Source: Octopus vulgaris (taxonomy: Eukaryota). From it: a DNA stretch of 64,000 bases. The notes under the pieces were generated by a model. The model was not told where the DNA came from. It searched no databases and saw only the letters and a program-made list of their open reading frames with translations. Of this stretch, positions 995-51,064 are shown piece by piece. Both the position numbers and the translations under genes were made by a program. The DNA is taken from positions 72,540,001 to 72,604,000 of the forward strand of contig OX597815.1 in assembly GCA_951406725.2 (NCBI GenBank), given 5' to 3'. Position 1 is the stretch's first letter; every line of letters begins with the position of its first letter.

Positions 995-1167
995 AATACA
1001 AAATGGGACAAGAACGCAAAACATCCAGAAGACGATACAAAAAACACGGACGGGTCATGCGAAGCCTTGAATCTTCAGTCAAGAACCGGATCATCCTCGC
1101 AATTTCGGCTGATTAACCTTGAGATTACTCCAATCTGGCCAGCCCCAAGGAAAAACTAAGCTAAGTG
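995..1167 (-). mobile_element. Short interspersed repeat embedded in (TA)n; possible Penelope-like 3' remnant
   Basis: Related copies at 2505-2708 and 37425-37535 (gggacaagaacg..aatcttcagtcaagaacc..ccccaaggaaaaactaagctaag). Confidence 0.55.
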
Positions 1168-1177
1168 CCTCCGGTTA

Positions 1178-1522
1178 AACTCACCTCACTTTGTCAGCTT
1201 ATAAGAGAATCGTTGACCTCATACGCTGATTTCAAAAACAATAAAAGTGAAAACTACAAATAATGTGGGTGGCTTATGCTTGTTTCTCCTTGTCAGTCAT
1301 TAAGATAGTGCTTCTATGGCGATGGAGTAATTTTGACTCTTATTTCTAGCAATGCTGGTACTACTTAGTACTCTGCACTTTAGTGACGTCTATAAATTTG
1401 CCTTTAAGTTGTTAAATTACTAATACGCCACCCATATTATTTGTAGTTTTCAATTTTACCGTTTTTGAAATCAGCTTATGAGTTCAACGGTCTTCTTATA
1501 AGCTGACAAAGTGAGGTGAGTT
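1178..1522. mobile_element. HHR-repeat family B segment arranged as a fold-back (about 95-bp inverted arms)
   Basis: 1178-1273 (aactcacctcactttgtcagcttataag...gtgggtggc) is the imperfect reverse complement of 1427-1522; 1280-1393 recurs at 2240-2357. Confidence 0.75.
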
Positions 1523-2139
1523 CGGCAACACTTCTGCTCGTCCCTACCTCCCAATAAAAAAAGCCACCCTTAAAAATTTTTTTGCCCCCTTTCTCAACTA
1601 CGGTGAATACGAATCTGCAAAAAAATTGGCAAATATCGGCATTTTTAAATTACTCCCACCCACCTTTTCCTTCATTTTTTTGCTTTTTTCAAAAAAATCT
1701 TTTTTTTCAAAATATGTGCAAAATATGGAGATTATGATTCTGAAAAAATTTCCAAATATTTTTGTAAAATTTTTTTTAAGAATTTTTTTTTTTTTTTCTA
1801 AATATGCGGAAAAATACGGACATTATGATTCGGACAAAAATTTCAAAACATTTCTATAGTTACGGTTAGGGTTAGGATTTTAGGGTTAGGGTTAGCTTTA
1901 GGGTTTTAGGTTAGCGTTAGGGTTGTAGGTTAGCGTTAGGGTCTTAGGGTTAGGGTTAGTGTTGGGGAAAAAGGAAAAATTGAAGAATTGGAGGAAGTGG
2001 GGAAAAAAATTTCACAATGCTGACTTTTGGCAATTTTCCGGAACCTCCGTATCTGAAAACGGGGGTTTCTGACAAAAAAAATTTTTAATGAACAAATTTG
2101 GGAGAAAATGGGGTAGGGTGACGGGCAGAAGCCTATCCA
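1523..2139. mobile_element. Non-autonomous TIR element with internal degenerate (TTAGGG)n, inserted into the family-B repeat
   Basis: Subterminal inverted repeats cttctgctcgtccctacc / ggtagggtgacgggcagaag; flanking direct repeat TGAGTT at 1517-1522 and 2140-2145; ggttag repeats at about 1865-1960. Confidence 0.7.
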
Positions 2140-2164
2140 TGAGTTTAACCATAAGCGCAGTAAG

Positions 2165-2224
2165 AGCCACCGATGAGAATTAAGATGCTCTGCATCAAAA
2201 TTCGAAATTACCGGTGATCTGGCT
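2165..2224 (+). ncRNA. Type I hammerhead ribozyme motif, family B, one core change (CCGAUGA)
   Basis: AGCCA-CCGAUGA-GAAUU(AA)GAUGC UCU GCAUC(AA)AAUUC-GAAA-UUA CCGG UGA-UC-UGGCU; stems I, II and III all pair; AUC triplet at 2217-2219. Confidence 0.75.
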
Positions 2225-2352
2225 ATGCCCACTGAGGTACTTGTCTCCCCTTGTCAGTCATTAAGATGGTGCTTTTGTGGCGATGGAATTGTTTTGACTC
2301 TTATTTCTAGCAATGCAGGTACTACTTAGTACCCTCTGTCACTTTAGTGTCG

Positions 2353-5013: not shown

Positions 5014-5957
5014 CTTCTAAAATACAAAATTTTGTCAAAAACGTTAAAAGTAAACCCTGTTCTATGTGACACATTCTACCAGTATCAGAAGTTTGAAAGT
5101 GTTTAGTTTTAAAAAAAATTGATTAAATAAGCTCTACGTCTAATTGAATAGATCCGAAATGGATGAAAGGCAAAGCCGACCTCGATGGAATTTGAACTCA
5201 AAACGTAAAGACAGACGAAATACCGCTTCTAAGATACAAAATTTTGTCAAAAACATTAAGAGTAGCCCTGTTCTATGTGACACATTCTACCAGTATCGGA
5301 AGTTTACTTTAAAAAAAAATGGATTTAATAATCCGTACGTCAAAGTCGACCTCGGCGAAATTTGAACTCAAAACGTAAAGACAGACGAAATACCGCTTCT
5401 AAGATACAAAATTTTGTCAAAAACATTAAGAGTAGCCCTGTTCTATGTGACACATTCTACCAGTATCGGAAGTTTACTTTAAAAAAAAAATGAATTTAAT
5501 AATCCGTACGTCAAAGTCGACCTCGGCGAAATTTGAACTCAAAACGTAAAGACAGACGTAATACCGCTTCTAAGATACAAAATTTTGTCAAAAACATTAA
5601 GAGTAGCCCTGTTCTATGTGACACATTCTACCAGTATCGGAAGTTTACTTTAAAAAAAAATGAATTTAATAATCCGTACCTCAAAGTCGACCTCGGCGAA
5701 ATTTGAACTCAAAACGTAAAGACAGACGAAATACCGCTTCTAAGATACAAAATTTTGTCAAAAACATTAAGAGTAGCCCTGTTCTATGTGACACATTCTA
5801 CCAGTATCTGAAGTTTACTTTAAGAAAAAATGAATTTAATAATCCGTACGTCAAAGTCGACCTCGGCGAAATTTGAACTCAAAACGTAAAGACAGACGAA
5901 ATGCCGTTAAGTATTTCGCCTGGTGCGTTAACGTTTTCTTGCCAGCACGCCGCCTTA
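5014..5957. repeat. Tandem array of about 170-bp units (about 5 copies) containing a SINE-B fragment
   Basis: aagatacaaaattttgtc recurs at about 5231, 5401, 5572 and 5742; each unit contains gtcgacctcggcgaaatttgaactc from SINE B. Confidence 0.9.
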
Positions 5958-11660: not shown

Positions 11661-12112
11661 CTGTAAATCCTCGAGTATAGTCCGCCCTTGAGTATAACAC
11701 GCAGAGGATTTTTAAGGGGCTGTACCTGTGAAAAACCTAAACCTTGTGTATAATACGCACCCCTTCTCTATCTTGAGTCAAGGAGGTCTATATAACGTCT
11801 TTGGTTTGTAAAAATGTATACGATAACGTCCTTTATTATTATTGTATATATAACATAATGCAAACGTGTAGCTTTTTTGTGCATTTTGCTTGCAGAAAAT
11901 AAAGAAATAACAGTAATGACGTTTAATAAATGTTGCTTACTGCAAGTTACGGATGATTCTTTTATGACTTCATTGCTTTCAGGCTTAGCTTAAGGTATTT
12001 TCGCGCCCGACATCACAAAATGAGTCTGAATAAACATTGCCGGACAGCAAATCGAGACTTGGACATTGCTTAGAAAATAATTTTCATTTTTAACCTCGTA
12101 TATAGTACGCAC
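11661..12112. mobile_element. Truncated pogo/Tigger-like non-autonomous DNA transposon
   Basis: Begins TA-ctgtaaatcctcgagtatagtccgc, with repeated subterminal motif cctcgagtatag / ccttgagtataa / cctcgtatatagtacgcac. Confidence 0.55.
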
Positions 12113-12155
12113 TCCAGACTGATGACGAGCAAATACTCAGAAACTAGTCTCTGGA
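12113..12155 (+). ncRNA. Type I hammerhead ribozyme, family A copy 1
   Basis: UCCAGA-CUGAUGA-C GAG CAAAUA CUC A-GAAA-C UA G-UC-UCUGGA; palindromic stem III ACUAGU; GUC at 12147-12149. Confidence 0.85.
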
Positions 12156-12462
12156 TGCAGGCTTAGCTGGGTGGAGGTGCTTGTCTTCCCCTTGTAAACA
12201 TAAGAAGACAGGAAATATGTCAAGGCCGACAGGTAGCGTTGATGCTTCCTAGGGCTAAATAGCAGTAGTATGATTCCCTTCATGGGACTGTCGCATTAAG
12301 TTGACAGTATACAACTACTCTGTCGTACCACTACTGCTTATATCTCTCTGAGATATTTCGAAATGTAATATTTCTATTTTTTAATCAGTGGATATATTTC
12401 ACTAGAATTCTTACATGTTTACAAGGGCTAGAAAAGCATCTCCGACTAGCAGGCCATGATAC

Positions 12463-12505
12463 TCCAGACTGATGACGAGCAAAGACTCAGAAACTAGTCT
12501 CTGGA
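12463..12505 (+). ncRNA. Type I hammerhead ribozyme, family A copy 2
   Basis: Same as copy 1 except loop II CAAAGA; GUC at 12497-12499. Confidence 0.85.
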
Positions 12506-12719
12506 TGCAGGCTTAGCTGGGTGGGGGTACTTGTCTCCCCCTTGTAAACATAAGGACACAGGAAATGTATCAAGGCGACAGAAAGCGTTGATGCTTCCTA
12601 GGGCTAAATAGCAGTGGTGTGATTCCCTTCATGGGACTGTCACATTAAGTTGACAGTATACAACTACTCTATCTCAACTATCTCAACTACTGCTTATATC
12701 TCTCTGAGATAGAAATCTC

Positions 12720-18389: not shown

Positions 18390-18498
18390 TATTTCTTGCT
18401 GAAGAATCTGAGGGCTTATGGAAGATTGGCTTGATTTAATTTAATCAGGTTAGTTTACCATTAAACAGCAGATGAAACGGTATACCGTACAAGAAATA
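18390..18498 (+). ncRNA. Type I hammerhead ribozyme with intact core and extended stem II
   Basis: UAUUUCUUG-CUGAAGA-AUCUG..(hairpin)..CAGAU-GAAA-CGGUAUACCG-UA-CAAGAAAUA; 9-bp stem I; stem III is the perfect 12-nt palindrome ACGGUAUACCGU; GUA at 18487-18489. Confidence 0.85.
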
Positions 18499-19584: not shown

Positions 19585-19770
19585 ATCGCGTGTGTACCGT
19601 TGGCGATTTTTATCCCTCCGTCTTCCCTTCTTTGGATCTTTCCTTTACCTATGTTTCTGACGAAGAGCTCCGCTCGAAACGTTAAACCCTCCTTCTTTCC
19701 TGAGCGTCCAATAATACTATACTTGTTCCACGTCCTCGCGTTGTTGTGTTTTCATGTTTGGATTAACTAT
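19585..19770 (+). mobile_element. Penelope-like 3' remnant carrying a minimal hammerhead (19654-19688)
   Basis: GUUU-CUGACGA-A-GAGC UCC GCUC-GAAA-CG-UU-AAAC; related copy on the minus strand at 45150-45360. Confidence 0.75.
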
Positions 19771-23499: not shown

Positions 23500-23856
<357 letters not shown>

Positions 23857-23894
23857 CATTAATAAATCTCCGAACGAGATATAAACAGTAACCG

Positions 23895-24200
23895 CTCGAC
23901 AACGTAAAGTGTACTTGCCATCTGAATGTGTCTAGCCACTGGGGGTGGGTGTTACTGACGCTTTTAGCCCCAGGAGATCGTCGTCTCTAGCTGGCCTTAG
24001 ACACAAATATCTGTGCCCTTATGATATTTGCAAAGGGAGGTCATCCCCCTCGAAAACCTAAGTGATACATACGGACTATAGTTTCAAGGTTTTTGCCTCT
24101 CGTCAACGCATGGCAAACACCGGTTTTCGATGAAGGAGACCTGTTTGCAAATAACTATTTAATGTTTTTCCCAGCAACCACAGTCACTGATTTAGAAAAA
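23895..24200 (-). mobile_element. Retrozyme-like element, family C, homologous to family A
   Basis: Minus strand: HHR followed by gacctccctttgcaaat..cataagggcacag..tgtctaaggcc..cctggggctaaaagcgtcagtaac, collinear with 12185-12270. Confidence 0.7.
24068..24112 (-). ncRNA. Type I hammerhead ribozyme, family C, core UUGACGA (C3U)
   Basis: CAUGCG-UUGACGA-GAGG CAAAAA CCUU-GAAA-C UAUA G-UC-CGUAUG; palindromic stem III ACUAUAGU. Confidence 0.75.
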
Positions 24201-24204
24201 CTGT

Positions 24205-24572
24205 CTGACAAGAGAGAAAATCTCCCTACAGCATCCGGGGCATAGCCAGACCACCACTGATTTCGCATTTGATTAATGCAGGTCAATGGCTCTCATCCGA
24301 CTGTCTAAGGTTAACCTAGCTCGCCTAGTCAGTTTATAAGAGTTACCGTAGAAATTGTACGCTGATTTCAAAAGTGGTAAAAGTGAAAATTATAGATAAT
24401 AAAGGTGGCTTATTCGCAATATACAACCGAAAGGCAAAAGCATAGATGTCACTTTCTTGTGGCTTTGAGTTGTTTTGGCTCTTATTTCTAGCTATTGCTA
24501 GCCACTTTAGTGACGACTATACTTCTGCCTTTCGGTTGTAAATTGTGAATAAGCCACCTTTATTATTATATA
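24205..24572. mobile_element. HHR-repeat family B variant: minus-strand degenerate HHR (24244-24291) plus fold-back arm
   Basis: Minus strand AGCCA-UUGACCU-GCAUU AAUCA AAUGC-GAAA-UCAGUGGUGG-UC-UGGCU; hairpin ataataaaggtggcttattc..caaccgaaaggca / tgcctttcggttg..gaataagccacctttattat. Confidence 0.65.
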
Positions 24573-24575
24573 TTT

Positions 24576-24734
24576 GTAAGGATAAAGATCGGAGCGATGA
24601 CCTCCCTTGCATATACAAAACGGGCGCGAACTGTATGTCGGTAGCCAACTAGAAAAGATGTTTTCCTGGGGCTAAAAGACAGTAACATTGTCCTTGTATT
24701 AGGACTGCCACATTATGTTGGCAAATAAACTTTA
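24576..24734 (+). mobile_element. Retrozyme family A/C body fragment without HHR
   Basis: gatgacctcccttgc..tgtcggtagcc..cctggggctaaaagacagtaac..ggcaaataaacttt; inverted relative to 23905-24045. Confidence 0.6.
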
Positions 24735-24898
24735 TTATATGTGTATGTATATATATATAGTGGCTGCGTGGTAAGTAGCTTGCTTACCAACCGGGTTCAG
24801 TCCCACTGCGTGGCACCTTGGGCAAGTGTCTTCTACTATAGCCTCGGGCCGGCCAAAGCCTATACATACATACATACATACATACATACATACATACA

Positions 24899-26844: not shown

Positions 26845-26894
26845 TATATATATATATATGAGAGAGAGAGAGACAGAGAGAGAGAGATCGTTAT

Positions 26895-27575
26895 TAAATT
26901 GACTAAAGGTACTAGTTAGCACCAACATTGCTAGAAATAAAAGTCAAAACAACTCATAGCCACGAGAAAGCACTTAACTTATGACTGACAAGAGAGACAA
27001 TCTCCCAATAGCATCCGGGGCATAGCCAGACCACCAGTGATTTCGCATTTGATTAATGCAGGTCAATGGCTCTCATCCGACTGTCTAAGGTTAACCTAGC
27101 TCGCCTAGTCAGTTTATAAGAGTTACCGTAGAAATCGTACGCTGATTTCAAAAGTGGTAAAAGTGAAAATTATAGATAATAAAGGTGGCTTATTCGCAAT
27201 ATACAACCGAAAGGCAAAAGTATAGACGTCACTTTCTTGTGGCTTTCAGTTGTTTTGACTCTTATTTCTAGCTATTGCTAGCCACTTTAGTGATGACTAT
27301 ACTTCTGCCTTTCGGTTGTAAATTGTGAATAAGCCACCTTTATTATTATATATATGTAAGGATAAAGATCGGAACGATGACCTCCCTTGCATATACAAAA
27401 CGGGCGCGAACTGTATGTCGGTAGCCAACTAGAAAAGATGTTTTCCTGGGGCTAAAAGACAGTAACATCGTCCTTGTATTAGGACTGCCACATTATGTTG
27501 GCAAATAAACTTTACTATATGTGTATGTATATATATATAGTGGCTGTGTGGTAAGTAGCTTGCTTACCAACCGGG
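26895..27575. repeat. Near-identical local duplicate of 24205-24795 (family B, family C fragment and SINE head), with about 90 bp extra family-B sequence
   Basis: ctgacaagagag..gcatccggggcatagccagaccacc through gcttaccaaccggg is shared with few substitutions. Confidence 0.9.
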
Positions 27576-27958
27576 TAAGAAACTTGCTACATAACCACAT
27601 GGGTCTGAACCCAGACCCACTGTGTGACAACTTGTGCAAGTAGCACCTCTGTTGGTGCAGTTTCTCCAGGCAGCTCGGTCTTGCACTTGCCTTTCTTAGA
27701 TGTCGGGATTGGTCTCAAAGTTCTTCCCTGATGTTGTGAAGCACTTTTTCTGTCTACCTTGCGTGCGCCTGCTTTCCAGCAGTCCGCTGTATGATAGTCT
27801 CTTGGTGGGTACTGTCAGGCATTCCACCAAAGCTTTGTGAGTGGATTTGGTTGAATAAACTGCAAAAGACCCGCATATGTGTGTGTGTATCTGTGTTTGT
27901 CCCCACCCCGCCATCGCTTGACAACCGATGTTAGTGTGTTTATGTCCCTGTAACTTAT
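27540..27958 (+). mobile_element. SINE family A carrying an internal antisense RTE fragment (about 27640-27822)
   Basis: SINE head, then tagcacctctgtt..gtactgtcaggcat (similar to 29065-29248), then the SINE resumes at ccaaagctttgtgagtggatttgg. Confidence 0.75.
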
Positions 27959-36079: not shown

Positions 36080-36413
36080 AGTAACAAAGATGTACAGATG
36101 TCAATTCATTACAGTCGTTTCAAGCGACTCCTTTAATTTATTAACGAAAATATTACATCATTTGAAAGAAACCGTTCTCGTCAGATGACCGCATAGACTT
36201 CAAAGACAAAAGATACAACCATATCCTTAATATATTCACATATTTTCAGTTCGATTATTGATGGGAATATGTTAAGGTTGTATCCTTTATGTTTGAAGTC
36301 CATGTGGTCATCTGACGAGAACAGTTTGTCTTCAAATGTAATGTTTCCTTAATCAATTAAAGGAGTCGCTTGAAACGGCCGTAATGAATTGACACCTATA
36401 CATCTTTGCTACT
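36080..36413. repeat. About 330-bp imperfect palindrome with an outward-facing hammerhead motif on each arm
   Basis: Plus strand UCAU-CUGACGA(36312)..GAAA(36372)-CGGCCG-UA-AUGA; the minus arm mirrors it (36184 to 36105) with GAAACGACUGUA. Confidence 0.8.
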
Positions 36414-37413: not shown

Positions 37414-37532
37414 GTAAAAAAACATATACAAACTGGGACAAGAACGTGAAACATTTAGAAGACGACACAAAAAACACGGACGGGACATTCGAAAGCCTTC
37501 AATCTTCAGTCAAGAACCAGATCATCTTTGCA

Positions 37533-37585
<53 letters not shown>

Positions 37586-47193: not shown

Positions 47194-47518
47194 CATTGCT
47201 ATATCCAAATTTGACTAAGTGTCCAAAATTGACTAACTACGTTTTTTTTCTTTTTCAATATTTATTTTTGCTTGCAATAGCCAGTTCTTTTGGTCAAGCA
47301 ATCATATATCTCCAGCTGTTTCAGATGCCAAAATATCAAAAATTGTCAAAGTGTGTATAACGGTTTTGCTATGGAATGGTGAAACTATTTCTTCGTTTTC
47401 TGAAAAAGCAACGTTTTGGACTTAAGACACTTTTTCATAATATACATACATACTACACACAAACGCGTCATACATACATATATACAGACATACATACATA
47501 CATACATACATACATACA

Positions 47519-47554
<36 letters not shown>

Positions 47555-47709
47555 GATACATTCGTTCATGCATACATACACATACATACATAGACAAACA
47601 TGTATAAATACATACACATCCATCCATGCACACACAAACACACACACACTTACACATATATGCATACGTACGAACGAAATCCATACATACATATGTACTT
47701 GGAAGCATG

Positions 47710-47715
47710 CATACA

Positions 47716-47747
<32 letters not shown>

Positions 47748-50700
47748 CATACATACATACATACATACATACATACATACATACATACATACATACATAC
47801 ATACATACATACATACATACATACATACATACATACATACATACATACATACATACATACATACATACATACATACATACATACATACATACATACATAC
47901 ATACATACATACATACATACATACATACATACATACATACATACATACATACATACATACATACATACATACATACATACATACATACATACATACATAC
48001 ATACATACATACATACATACATACATACATACATACATACATACATACATACATACATACATACATACATACATACATACATACATACATACATACATAC
48101 ATACATACATACATACATACATACATACATACATACATACATACATACATACATACATACATACATACATACATACATACATACATACATACATACATAC
48201 ATACATACATACATACATACATACATACATACATACATACATACATACATACATACATACATACATACATACATACATACATACATACATACATACATAC
48301 ATACATACATACATACATACATACATACATACATACATACATACATACATACATACATACATACATACATACATACATACATACATACATACATACATAC
48401 ATACATACATACATACATACATACATACATACATACATACATACATACATACATACATACATACATACATACATACATACATACATACATACATACATAC
48501 ATACATACATACATACATACATACATACATACATACATACATACATACATACATACATACATACATACATACATACATACATACATACATACATACATAC
48601 ATACATACATACATACATACATACATACATACATACATACATACATACATACATACATACATACATACATACATACATACATACATACATACATACATAC
48701 ATACATACATACATACATACATACATACATACATACATACATACATACATACATACATACATACATACATACATACATACATACATACATACATACATAC
48801 ATACATACATACATACATACATACATACATACATACATACATACATACATACATACATACATACATACATACATACATACATACATACATACATACATAC
48901 ATACATACATACATACATACATACATACATACATACATACATACATACATACATACATACATACATACATACATACATACATACATACATACATACATAC
49001 ATACATACATACATACATACATACATACATACATACATACATACATACATACATACATACATACATACATACATACATACATACATACATACATACATAC
49101 ATACATACATACATACATACATACATACATACATACATACATACATACATACATACATACATACATACATACATACATACATACATACATACATACATAC
49201 ATACATACATACATACATACATACATACATACATACATACATACATACATACATACATACATACATACATACATACATACATACATACATACATACATAC
49301 ATACATACATACATACATACATACATACATACATACATACATACATACATACATACATACATACATACATACATACATACATACATACATACATACATAC
49401 ATACATACATACATACATACATACATACATACATACATACATACATACATACATACATACATACATACATACATACATACATACATACATACATACATAC
49501 ATACATACATACATACATACATACATACATACATACATACATACATACATACATACATACATACATACATACATACATACATACATACATACATACATAC
49601 ATACATACATACATACATACATACATACATACATACATACATACATACATACATACATACATACATACATACATACATACATACATACATACATACATAC
49701 ATACATACATACATACATACATACATACATACATACATACATACATACATACATACATACATACATACATACATACATACATACATACATACATACATAC
49801 ATACATACATACATACATACATACATACATACATACATACATACATACATACATACATACATACATACATACATACATACATACATACATACATACATAC
49901 ATACATACATACATACATACATACATACATACATACATACATACATACATACATACATACATACATACATACATACATACATACATACATACATACATAC
50001 ATACATACATACATACATACATACATACATACATACATACATACATACATACATACATACATACATACATACATACATACATACATACATACATACATAC
50101 ATACATACATACATACATACATACATACATACATACATACATACATACATACATACATACATACATACATACATACATACATACATACATACATACATAC
50201 ATACATACATACATACATACATACATACATACATACATACATACATACATACATACATACATACATACATACATACATACATACATACATACATACATAC
50301 ATACATACATACATACATACATACATACATACATACATACATACATACATACATACATACATACATACATACATACATACATACATACATACATACATAC
50401 ATACATACATACATACATACATACATACATACATACATACATACATACATACATACATACATACATACATACATACATACATACATACATACATACATAC
50501 ATACATACATACATACATACATACATACATACATACATACATACATACATACATACATACATACATACATACATACATACATACATACATACATACATAC
50601 ATACATACATACATACATACATACATACATACATACATACATACATACATACATACATACATACATACATACATACATACATACATACATACATACATAC

Positions 50701-51033
50701 ATACATACATACATACATACATACATACATACATACATACATACATACATACATACATACATACATACATACATACATACATACATACATACATACATAC
50801 ATACATACATACATACATACATACATACATACATACATACATACATACATACATACATACATACATACATACATACATACATACATACATACATACATAC
50901 ATACATACATACATACATACATACATACATACATACATACATACATACATACATACATACATACATACATACATACATACATACATACATACATACATAC
51001 ATACATACATACATACATACATACATACATACA

Positions 51034-51062
<29 letters not shown>
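47710..51062. repeat. (TACA)n tetranucleotide array, about 3.3 kb, essentially perfect
   Basis: Uninterrupted atac repeats from about 47747 to 51062. Confidence 0.98.

Positions 51063-51064
<2 letters not shown>

Follow-up and report, generated by a model that had tools for sequence, protein, structure and literature searches.

A unit-length retrozyme-like repeat in Octopus vulgaris DNA and a predicted RNA fold shared by three diverged lineages

The window analyzed here, a 64-kb stretch of microsatellite-rich, animal-like DNA without N, carries at positions 23854 to 24208, on the minus strand, one full, circularly permuted retrozyme-like unit of 355 nt, referred to as lineage C. This unit is probably a whole non-LTR retrozyme that was mobilized into TA microsatellites by a Penelope-like element (PLE). 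It is likely a small parasitic retroelement of a known kind, derived from PLE terminal repeats. The RNA fold that it is predicted to share with two relatives, family A and lineage D, may be a handle gripped by a Penelope-type reverse transcriptase (RT). The window, or part of it, is present in 20 of the 24 sequencing runs listed, under four organism labels.

Hammerhead motif and limits of the lineage C unit

The minus-strand hammerhead that a preliminary description had placed at 24068 to 24112 was recovered by motif scan at exactly these positions. It is a type I motif with a 6-bp stem I, the core UUGACGA, a 4-bp stem II, GAA and a GUC site, with the predicted cut after C17 at position 24074; helix III is the 8-nt palindrome ACUAUAGU. 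The core deviates from the canonical one at a single point, hammerhead position 3 (position 24106), where U3 lies opposite G8. This U3·G8 core should weaken cleavage. A natural U3 hammerhead variant is cited in PMC7151607, and none of the 40 rows listed (of 168) for letter differences in the public runs falls on 24106. A compact hammerhead scan returned three motifs in the window, compared to a mean of 0.01 in 100 block-shuffled windows. The same scan found none in a tandem array at 5171 to 5906, which contains 4.3 copies of a 170-bp unit at 97% identity. Rfam gave no match at the gathering threshold in the 64 kb, and hammerhead families were absent from its 17 weak matches and from family A. 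Pistol or twister ribozyme motifs, considered at first, were dropped for want of Rfam support.

According to PMC4209133, the minimal hammerheads (min-HHRs) of PLEs combine a long helix II (7 to 8 bp) with an unpaired base before it and no helix III, and metazoan type I hammerheads with a palindromic helix III act as dimers. With a helix II of 4 bp and its palindromic helix III, C does not have the min-HHR layout. Elsewhere in the window, a minimal hammerhead of the PLE min-HHR type is located at 19653 to 19687 on the plus strand (core CUGACGA, an extra base before stem II and a 4-nt palindrome).

The preliminary description had given C as a hammerhead followed by blocks of family A; both are present, within a unit that is longer than the span given there and whose limits were set by joints and by homology to A. 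The unit has a GC content of 0.437 and a longest ATG-initiated ORF of 20 aa, marking it as non-coding, and lacks an LTR. The copy in the window covers the 355-nt unit exactly once (355/355 nt), so that it is itself a monomer; its ends do not coincide with the cut site but lie approximately 95 nt upstream of the hammerhead. Its 3' end adjoins (TA)n, part of a (CA)n(TA)n microsatellite at 23702 to 23854 (repeat scan) that is the likely target.

The unit length follows from two head-to-tail joints among those listed for contigs of public sequencing runs belonging to two studies. The first leads from 24208 to 23860 with 6 nt between (run X13) and the second from 24208 to 23856 with 2 nt between (run X18), each defining a unit of 355 nt. 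Both runs are probably RNA, a label that is a guess for these two of the four public runs compared as contigs (two DNA, two guessed RNA), and a joint seen in contigs fits a circle or a tandem transcript alike. Summed contig depth over the C body, which is no copy number, amounts to 0.7-6 × 10^5 in the DNA runs X2 and X6, versus 27 to 82 for the single DNA pieces listed. On a plain reading, C belongs to a many-copy family.

These features correspond to those described for metazoan retrozymes in PMC7229834, namely, a type I hammerhead and a non-coding, self-paired repeat of about 150 to 400 nt with a GC content below 45%. C has the type I hammerhead, the low-GC non-coding unit and a predicted self-paired RNA, and the head-to-tail arrangement is found at the family level, in the C joint of X13 and X18 and in the tandem of family A in the window. 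The closest description is that of the 350- to 390-bp non-LTR retrozymes of mussels (Cervera and de la Pena 2020, PMC7229834), which share the type I hammerhead, the unit of about 350 nt, the GC content below 45%, the head-to-tail arrangement and the self-pairing; C differs in its U3·G8 core. A 2026 preprint (10.64898/2026.07.22.740005) reserves "active" for two consecutive units, whereas the C copy alone is a single one.

A kinship with PLEs raises the question of whether C, A and D are mere pLTR pieces of autonomous PLEs, left by 5'-truncated insertions and lacking a life cycle of their own. Xenopus retrozymes have pLTRs as their sister sequences (10.64898/2026.07.22.740005), PLEs leave truncated, inverted and microsatellite-ended copies (PMC8557442), and D is a fragment without a hammerhead. 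However, family A is a 350-nt tandem whose hammerheads have no ORF between them, two runs, each from a different study, show C units of 355 nt joined head to tail, and the hammerheads have the canonical 6-bp/4-bp layout instead of the min-HHR of PLEs (PMC4209133). We therefore consider an origin of all three as mere pLTR pieces unlikely. C has no attached RT/GIY-YIG ORF in the window. The RT and GIY-YIG ORF that lies between the pLTRs of an autonomous PLE has no counterpart in the C unit, which contains no ORF, and none of the 15 frames scanned in Pfam (of 145 listed) matches RT or GIY-YIG, a point against the proposed mobilization by a PLE.

Homology and predicted fold of A, C and D

Family A occupies 12111 to 12712 on the plus strand, where repeat scan and homology delimit 1.7 tandem units of 350 nt, with canonical CUGAUGA hammerheads at 12113 to 12155 and 12463 to 12505. 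The collinearity of C with this family, claimed from inspection of the letters, was borne out by alignment: 12160 to 12300 against the reverse complement of 23900 to 24065 scores 57, versus 18.2 ± 3.1 for shuffled controls (0 of 2,000 shuffles as good, z 12.6). Over the full unit, C aligns with the first A copy (A1) at z 27 and with the second (A2) at z 20; C against D reaches z 27 and A against D z 11. Global identity of A and C over the whole unit is 223 of 378 columns. The stretch upstream of the hammerhead alone is not significant between A and C, as 411 of 2,000 shuffles score equally well or better. Homology and shared pairing agree with the earlier proposal of C as a retrozyme-like lineage of its own, diverged from A and collinear with it.

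Searches of the window with a covariance model and with nhmmer recovered the five training copies and no additional lineage. In a metagenome pattern scan, a strict pattern gave no match and a looser one seven loci, none of which (0/7) has an upstream hammerhead core or homology past the motif; among viral contigs, three loci matched and none was related (0/3). Family B was tried as a fourth member of the A/C/D body and rejected, except for approximately 34 nt after the hammerhead, where B against A was equaled by 2 of 1,000 shuffles; the other five comparisons were not significant.

The motif CCTRGGGCTAAA has five exact matches in the window, all within A1, A2, C and the two D copies (D1 and D2), in line with its earlier description as conserved across variants. 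In A and in C alike, the cut site precedes it by 98 to 99 nt. In C, it occupies 23963 to 23974 (minus strand), where pairing analysis assigns most of it to the 3' strands of P2b and P2a, which flank an internal loop; an unpaired AAA linker follows. These helices are part of a conserved structured module predicted by folding to be common to C, A and D (23866 to 24034 in C, minus strand), which consists of P0 (a long rod), P1, P2a/P2b, P3, P4, P5 and P6, names coined in this analysis. The helix coordinates derive from a local best-pairing search and are biased towards pairing. A, C and D allow the same set of helices although the arms differ between them: P2a is formed by GGCC or TAGCC with GGCT, P3 by TCCC/GGGA, CCAC/GTGG or GTCCT/AGGAC according to lineage, P5 by 9 bp in A and by 7 bp with two double changes in C, and the P0 rod by 12 to 13 bp in A and C. 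The GGCT and CC letters of CCTRGGGCTAAA pair with upstream partners in all three lineages.

RNAalifold identified double changes in 7 of 33 pairs. A hand-set structure has 31 pairs, 6 of which differ between lineages in both letters; pairing holds in 88.5% of its 139 cells, compared to 24 to 46% after sliding the structure. As this structure was drawn from the same five rows of three lineages, the test leans in its favor. Replacing letters of a copy by the majority letters is more independent of the drawn structure than such pair counts. For C, with two minority rows left out, 6 of 10 rows stabilize the fold by >0.5 kcal/mol and 1 destabilizes it; the mean effect is -1.9 kcal/mol, versus +0.99 ± 0.62 kcal/mol for random changes of the same type, and none of 20,000 draws was as good. 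The majority letters at 23916 and 23931 (>99% of depth) mend exactly both mismatches of P4. The corresponding result for D, with one minority row left out, is weak (2 of 8 rows stabilizing, 1 destabilizing, P 0.04). Fold z-scores of -3.2 (linear) and -2.95 (circular) for C, and of -8.1 and -7.6 for A, predict a strongly self-paired RNA.

This evidence supports the placement of CCTRGGGCTAAA within a functional-looking RNA structure, as modeled here. The preliminary description had left a choice between a functional RNA and a promoter element. The former is upheld by pairing that is kept across lineages, and the latter is not upheld in its Pol III form. Internal Pol III promoters, as in tRNA-derived SINEs, consist of an A box and a B box and contain no internal T4 run. 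In A, C and D, no B box was found, and runs of T4 to T6, which would terminate Pol III transcription, occur inside. A Pol III promoter is thus unlikely; a σ70 promoter scan, irrelevant to animal DNA, stayed at chance level. More generally, CCTRGGGCTAAA could be a DNA-level internal promoter driving transcription of the unit, given that its letters are, beyond pairing, nearly invariant across lineages that are only ~60% alike and that an internal promoter resides within the pLTRs of PLEs (PMC8557442). Against this stand the missing B box and the T4+ runs, the upstream pairing of GGCT and CC in all three lineages and the position of the motif inside a structured RNA, 98 to 99 nt beyond the cut sites of A and C. 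A role as DNA promoter thus appears improbable.

A further element of the fold is a CAGTAR strand with two possible partners in family A, 12264 to 12268 pairing with either 12315 to 12319 or 12330 to 12338, one directly after P4 and the other in the tail. In D, 24681 to 24685 can pair with 24732 to 24736, and D ends at this proximal CAGTAR partner. The modeled dual pairing is possibly a switch tied to two RT start sites.

Composition and probable growth of the 24-kb cluster

C is part of a cluster with the order (CA)n(TA)n, C(-), B(-), B(+), spacer, D(+), TA repeats and SINE-like repeat, in which all 3' ends are directed outward. Approximately 370 bp of family B, a separate family with a unit of about 350 nt, separate C from D in the form of two inverted pieces, delimited by homology. 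The minus-strand piece (24205 to 24453) overlaps C by 4 nt at 24205 to 24208 and carries a decayed type I hammerhead (24244 to 24291, core UUGACCU); majority letters from the DNA runs at 24280, 24281 and 24286 yield the canonical core, and those at 24251 and 24257 repair stem III. The plus-strand piece (24452 to 24571) is inverted and 5' truncated, and is ~88% identical to the minus-strand piece over the shared 68 bp. Rfam miRNA-like matches at 24395 to 24567, with scores far below gathering, were rejected as reflecting this B/B inversion. A 10-nt TA-like spacer, overlapping the end of B, precedes D.

Lineage D (24576 to 24734, plus strand, motif at 24665 to 24676) is homologous to the body of A and C. 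It had been presented as an inverted relative facing C. The homology and the inverted orientation hold, but D has no hammerhead, is cut at both ends and is not adjacent to C, from which it points away, the 5' ends of both lying inward. D starts ~12 nt past the equivalent cut site and stops before the distal P5 arm. D-like contigs begin to match at 24576 to 24578, and loose contig ends behind 24734 carry the P5 arm that D is missing, with low agreement (0.46 to 0.67), which points to further lineages.

The second D copy (D2, 27356 to 27514) is indeed a duplicate, as described before, yet not a second insertion. The segment 24205 to 24796 recurs at 26985 to 27576 (592 bp, 15 differences), including B and part of the SINE-like repeat; since D2 lies inside this duplication, it is no independent insertion. 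The three lineages consequently account, together with the separate family B, for no more than four independent placements (A, C, D and B). At the second locus (26887 to 27576, by alignment), which includes the duplicate segment with D2 inside it, B(-) continues to its own 3' end at ~26887 beside (TC)n/(TA)n, for a length of one unit plus ~10 nt. Another B copy ends at the same point, at position 2352. B/B inversions occur at about 24452, 27234 and 1278, with 3' ends at (TA)n or (TC)n. Inverted 5'-truncated copies at microsatellite targets, the insertion style of PLEs, are thus found here.

The duplication is a DNA-level event, and one may ask whether unequal crossing-over and gene conversion have spread the units as satellite-like DNA, with the fold as a relic and no present RNA mobilization. 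The private helix-breaking changes and the U3 core of the C copy would agree with this, as would the absence of cleavage in vitro for eight of nine Xenopus dimers (10.64898/2026.07.22.740005). On the other hand, dispersed single units that end at microsatellites fit target-primed insertion, two B copies (2352 and ~26887) share their 3' end point, and pairing is kept by the family-majority letters. A purely satellite-like mode of spread therefore has little probability.

For the cluster itself, stepwise growth is most likely. An inverted B/B insertion would have come first, D would then have been added at the TA-rich end of B, the segment would have been copied to 27 kb, and finally C would have entered by priming at the left (TA)n, its junction with B being formed at the 4-nt overlap with the loss of ~95 nt of B. 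This order is favored because the 27-kb duplicate keeps B intact where the 24-kb locus has C. It is possible, though doubtful, that the C-B-B-D cluster arose in one event instead, from an RT jumping between RNAs of different retrozyme families (a hetero-multimer formed by template switching). The outer ends both lie at TA-rich repeats with 3' ends outward, C and B overlap by 4 nt at their joint, D starts near the equivalent cut site, and a similar joint links another family to an inverted B pair at 990 to 1530. Set against these points are the intact B of the duplicate, for which stepwise insertion is simpler, the 10-nt TA-like spacer between B and D, and a B-type contig of run X18 that ends in (TA)n at 24571.

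Several other hammerhead-like repeats are present in the window. Family B pieces at 1166 to 1277 (-), 1279 to 1530 (+) and 2136 to 2352 (+) include another inverted B/B pair; the copy near 2 kb has a hammerhead at 2165 to 2224 (+) with a long stem II and the core CCGAUGA, and is interrupted by an insert of ~600 bp with short inverted ends and GTTAGG repeats. A further dispersed family, whose copies end in (TA)n and whose hammerhead-like core (CUGAAGA) is decayed, is located at 999 to 1170, 2494 to 2708 and 37426 to 37535 (-); its first copy is joined directly to B, and the start of the family carries TTTTCCTTGGGGCT, which resembles the D motif. At 18390 to 18498 (+), a well-formed type I hammerhead (fold z -5.75), whose stem I has 9 bp and whose stem II is long, sits in a unit of ~340 nt between two microsatellites and represents a further family. 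An inverted hammerhead-like pair at 36106 to 36188 (-) and 36308 to 36387 (+), with stems that are weak in folding, belongs to a (TG)n/(TA)n-flanked element of PLE style. Finally, a 3.6-kb (ATAC)n array at 47442 to 51063 (97% purity) is unusually long and possibly an assembly artifact.

Proposed mobilization and relation to known retroelements

In coral, mussel and axolotl, circular RNAs arise from retrozyme repeats, for which PLEs are the proposed helpers (PMC7229834), and the 2026 preprint derives animal retrozymes from PLE pLTRs (10.64898/2026.07.22.740005). Along these lines, tandem C copies would be transcribed, and the transcript would cleave itself, probably as a dimer, and form a circle. 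A PLE protein would bind the conserved helices around CCTRGGGCTAAA and thereby set the start of reverse transcription, and the RT-endonuclease would nick (TA)n and prime 60 to 110 nt downstream of the motif. The distance from CCTRGGGCTAAA to the 3' end is 58 nt in D, 104 nt in A2 and 109 nt in C, with one copy per lineage. The unit-length, permuted C copy would represent either one copying round on a circle or copying of a linear multimer on which the RT stopped at the following bound site; family A, at 1.7 units, indicates that copying can pass one unit.

In PLE pLTRs and their non-autonomous derivatives (PMC4209133, PMC8557442, 10.64898/2026.07.22.740005), as in the cluster described here, helix III of the type I hammerhead is palindromic, pieces are inverted and 5' truncated, and microsatellites are the targets. 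PLE insertions are described as inverted 5'-truncated copies with a 30- to 40-bp tail, a (TA)n bias and staggered 3' ends (PMC8557442). The staggered 3' ends observed here may resemble this optional tail from two RT start sites, in that 58 nt contrasts with 104 to 109 nt, again from one copy per lineage.

A Poseidon PLE has two internal sites, both downstream of its hammerhead, at which reverse transcription of its RNA starts, and hammerhead cleavage is dispensable for its insertion in vitro (PMC11167929). The likeness to Anolis Poseidon PAc (Frangieh et al. 2024, PMC11167929), in described traits, consists of an RT start downstream of the hammerhead, which is only inferred in the present case, and of AT-rich targets; a protein-binding region is hypothesized in the same stretch of PAc. 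In contrast, PAc is autonomous, and its hammerhead overlaps the start of the ORF. Cleavage has been seen for one of nine Xenopus retrozyme dimers (10.64898/2026.07.22.740005).

The main text of PMC7229834 contains no mention of octopus or cephalopods, and the paper calls metazoan retrozymes species specific and appears to describe no multi-helix module kept across diverged lineages. Titles and abstract openings of the listed papers on octopus and hammerhead ribozymes describe no such repeats, and the main text of a 2026 Octopus vulgaris repeat annotation does not use the word "ribozyme," although its library may list these families under other names. In other respects, C adds one more species to a kind of element on record for corals, mussels, insects and amphibians; some further interest comes from the RNA module that the lineages share and from permuted copies of unit length.

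Retrozyme mobilization in animals is still a hypothesis (PMC7229834) and is listed as open in the 2026 preprint (10.64898/2026.07.22.740005). Helices that persist while lineages diverge by ~40% form an obvious candidate for the binding site of a helper protein, and a circular template predicts unit-length permuted copies, which can be counted. We tentatively suggest, as a broader reading that is itself rather doubtful, that several lineages keep one covarying module centered on CCTRGGGCTAAA as the signal of a Penelope-type RT, that unit-length permuted copies (C at 355/355 nt, B at 27 kb at one unit plus ~10 nt) may be footprints of one round on circular RNA, and that cross-family joints may be template jumps. 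If true, the RT-signal reading would provide a defined RNA signal and a genomic signature with which the movement of animal retrozymes could be tested.
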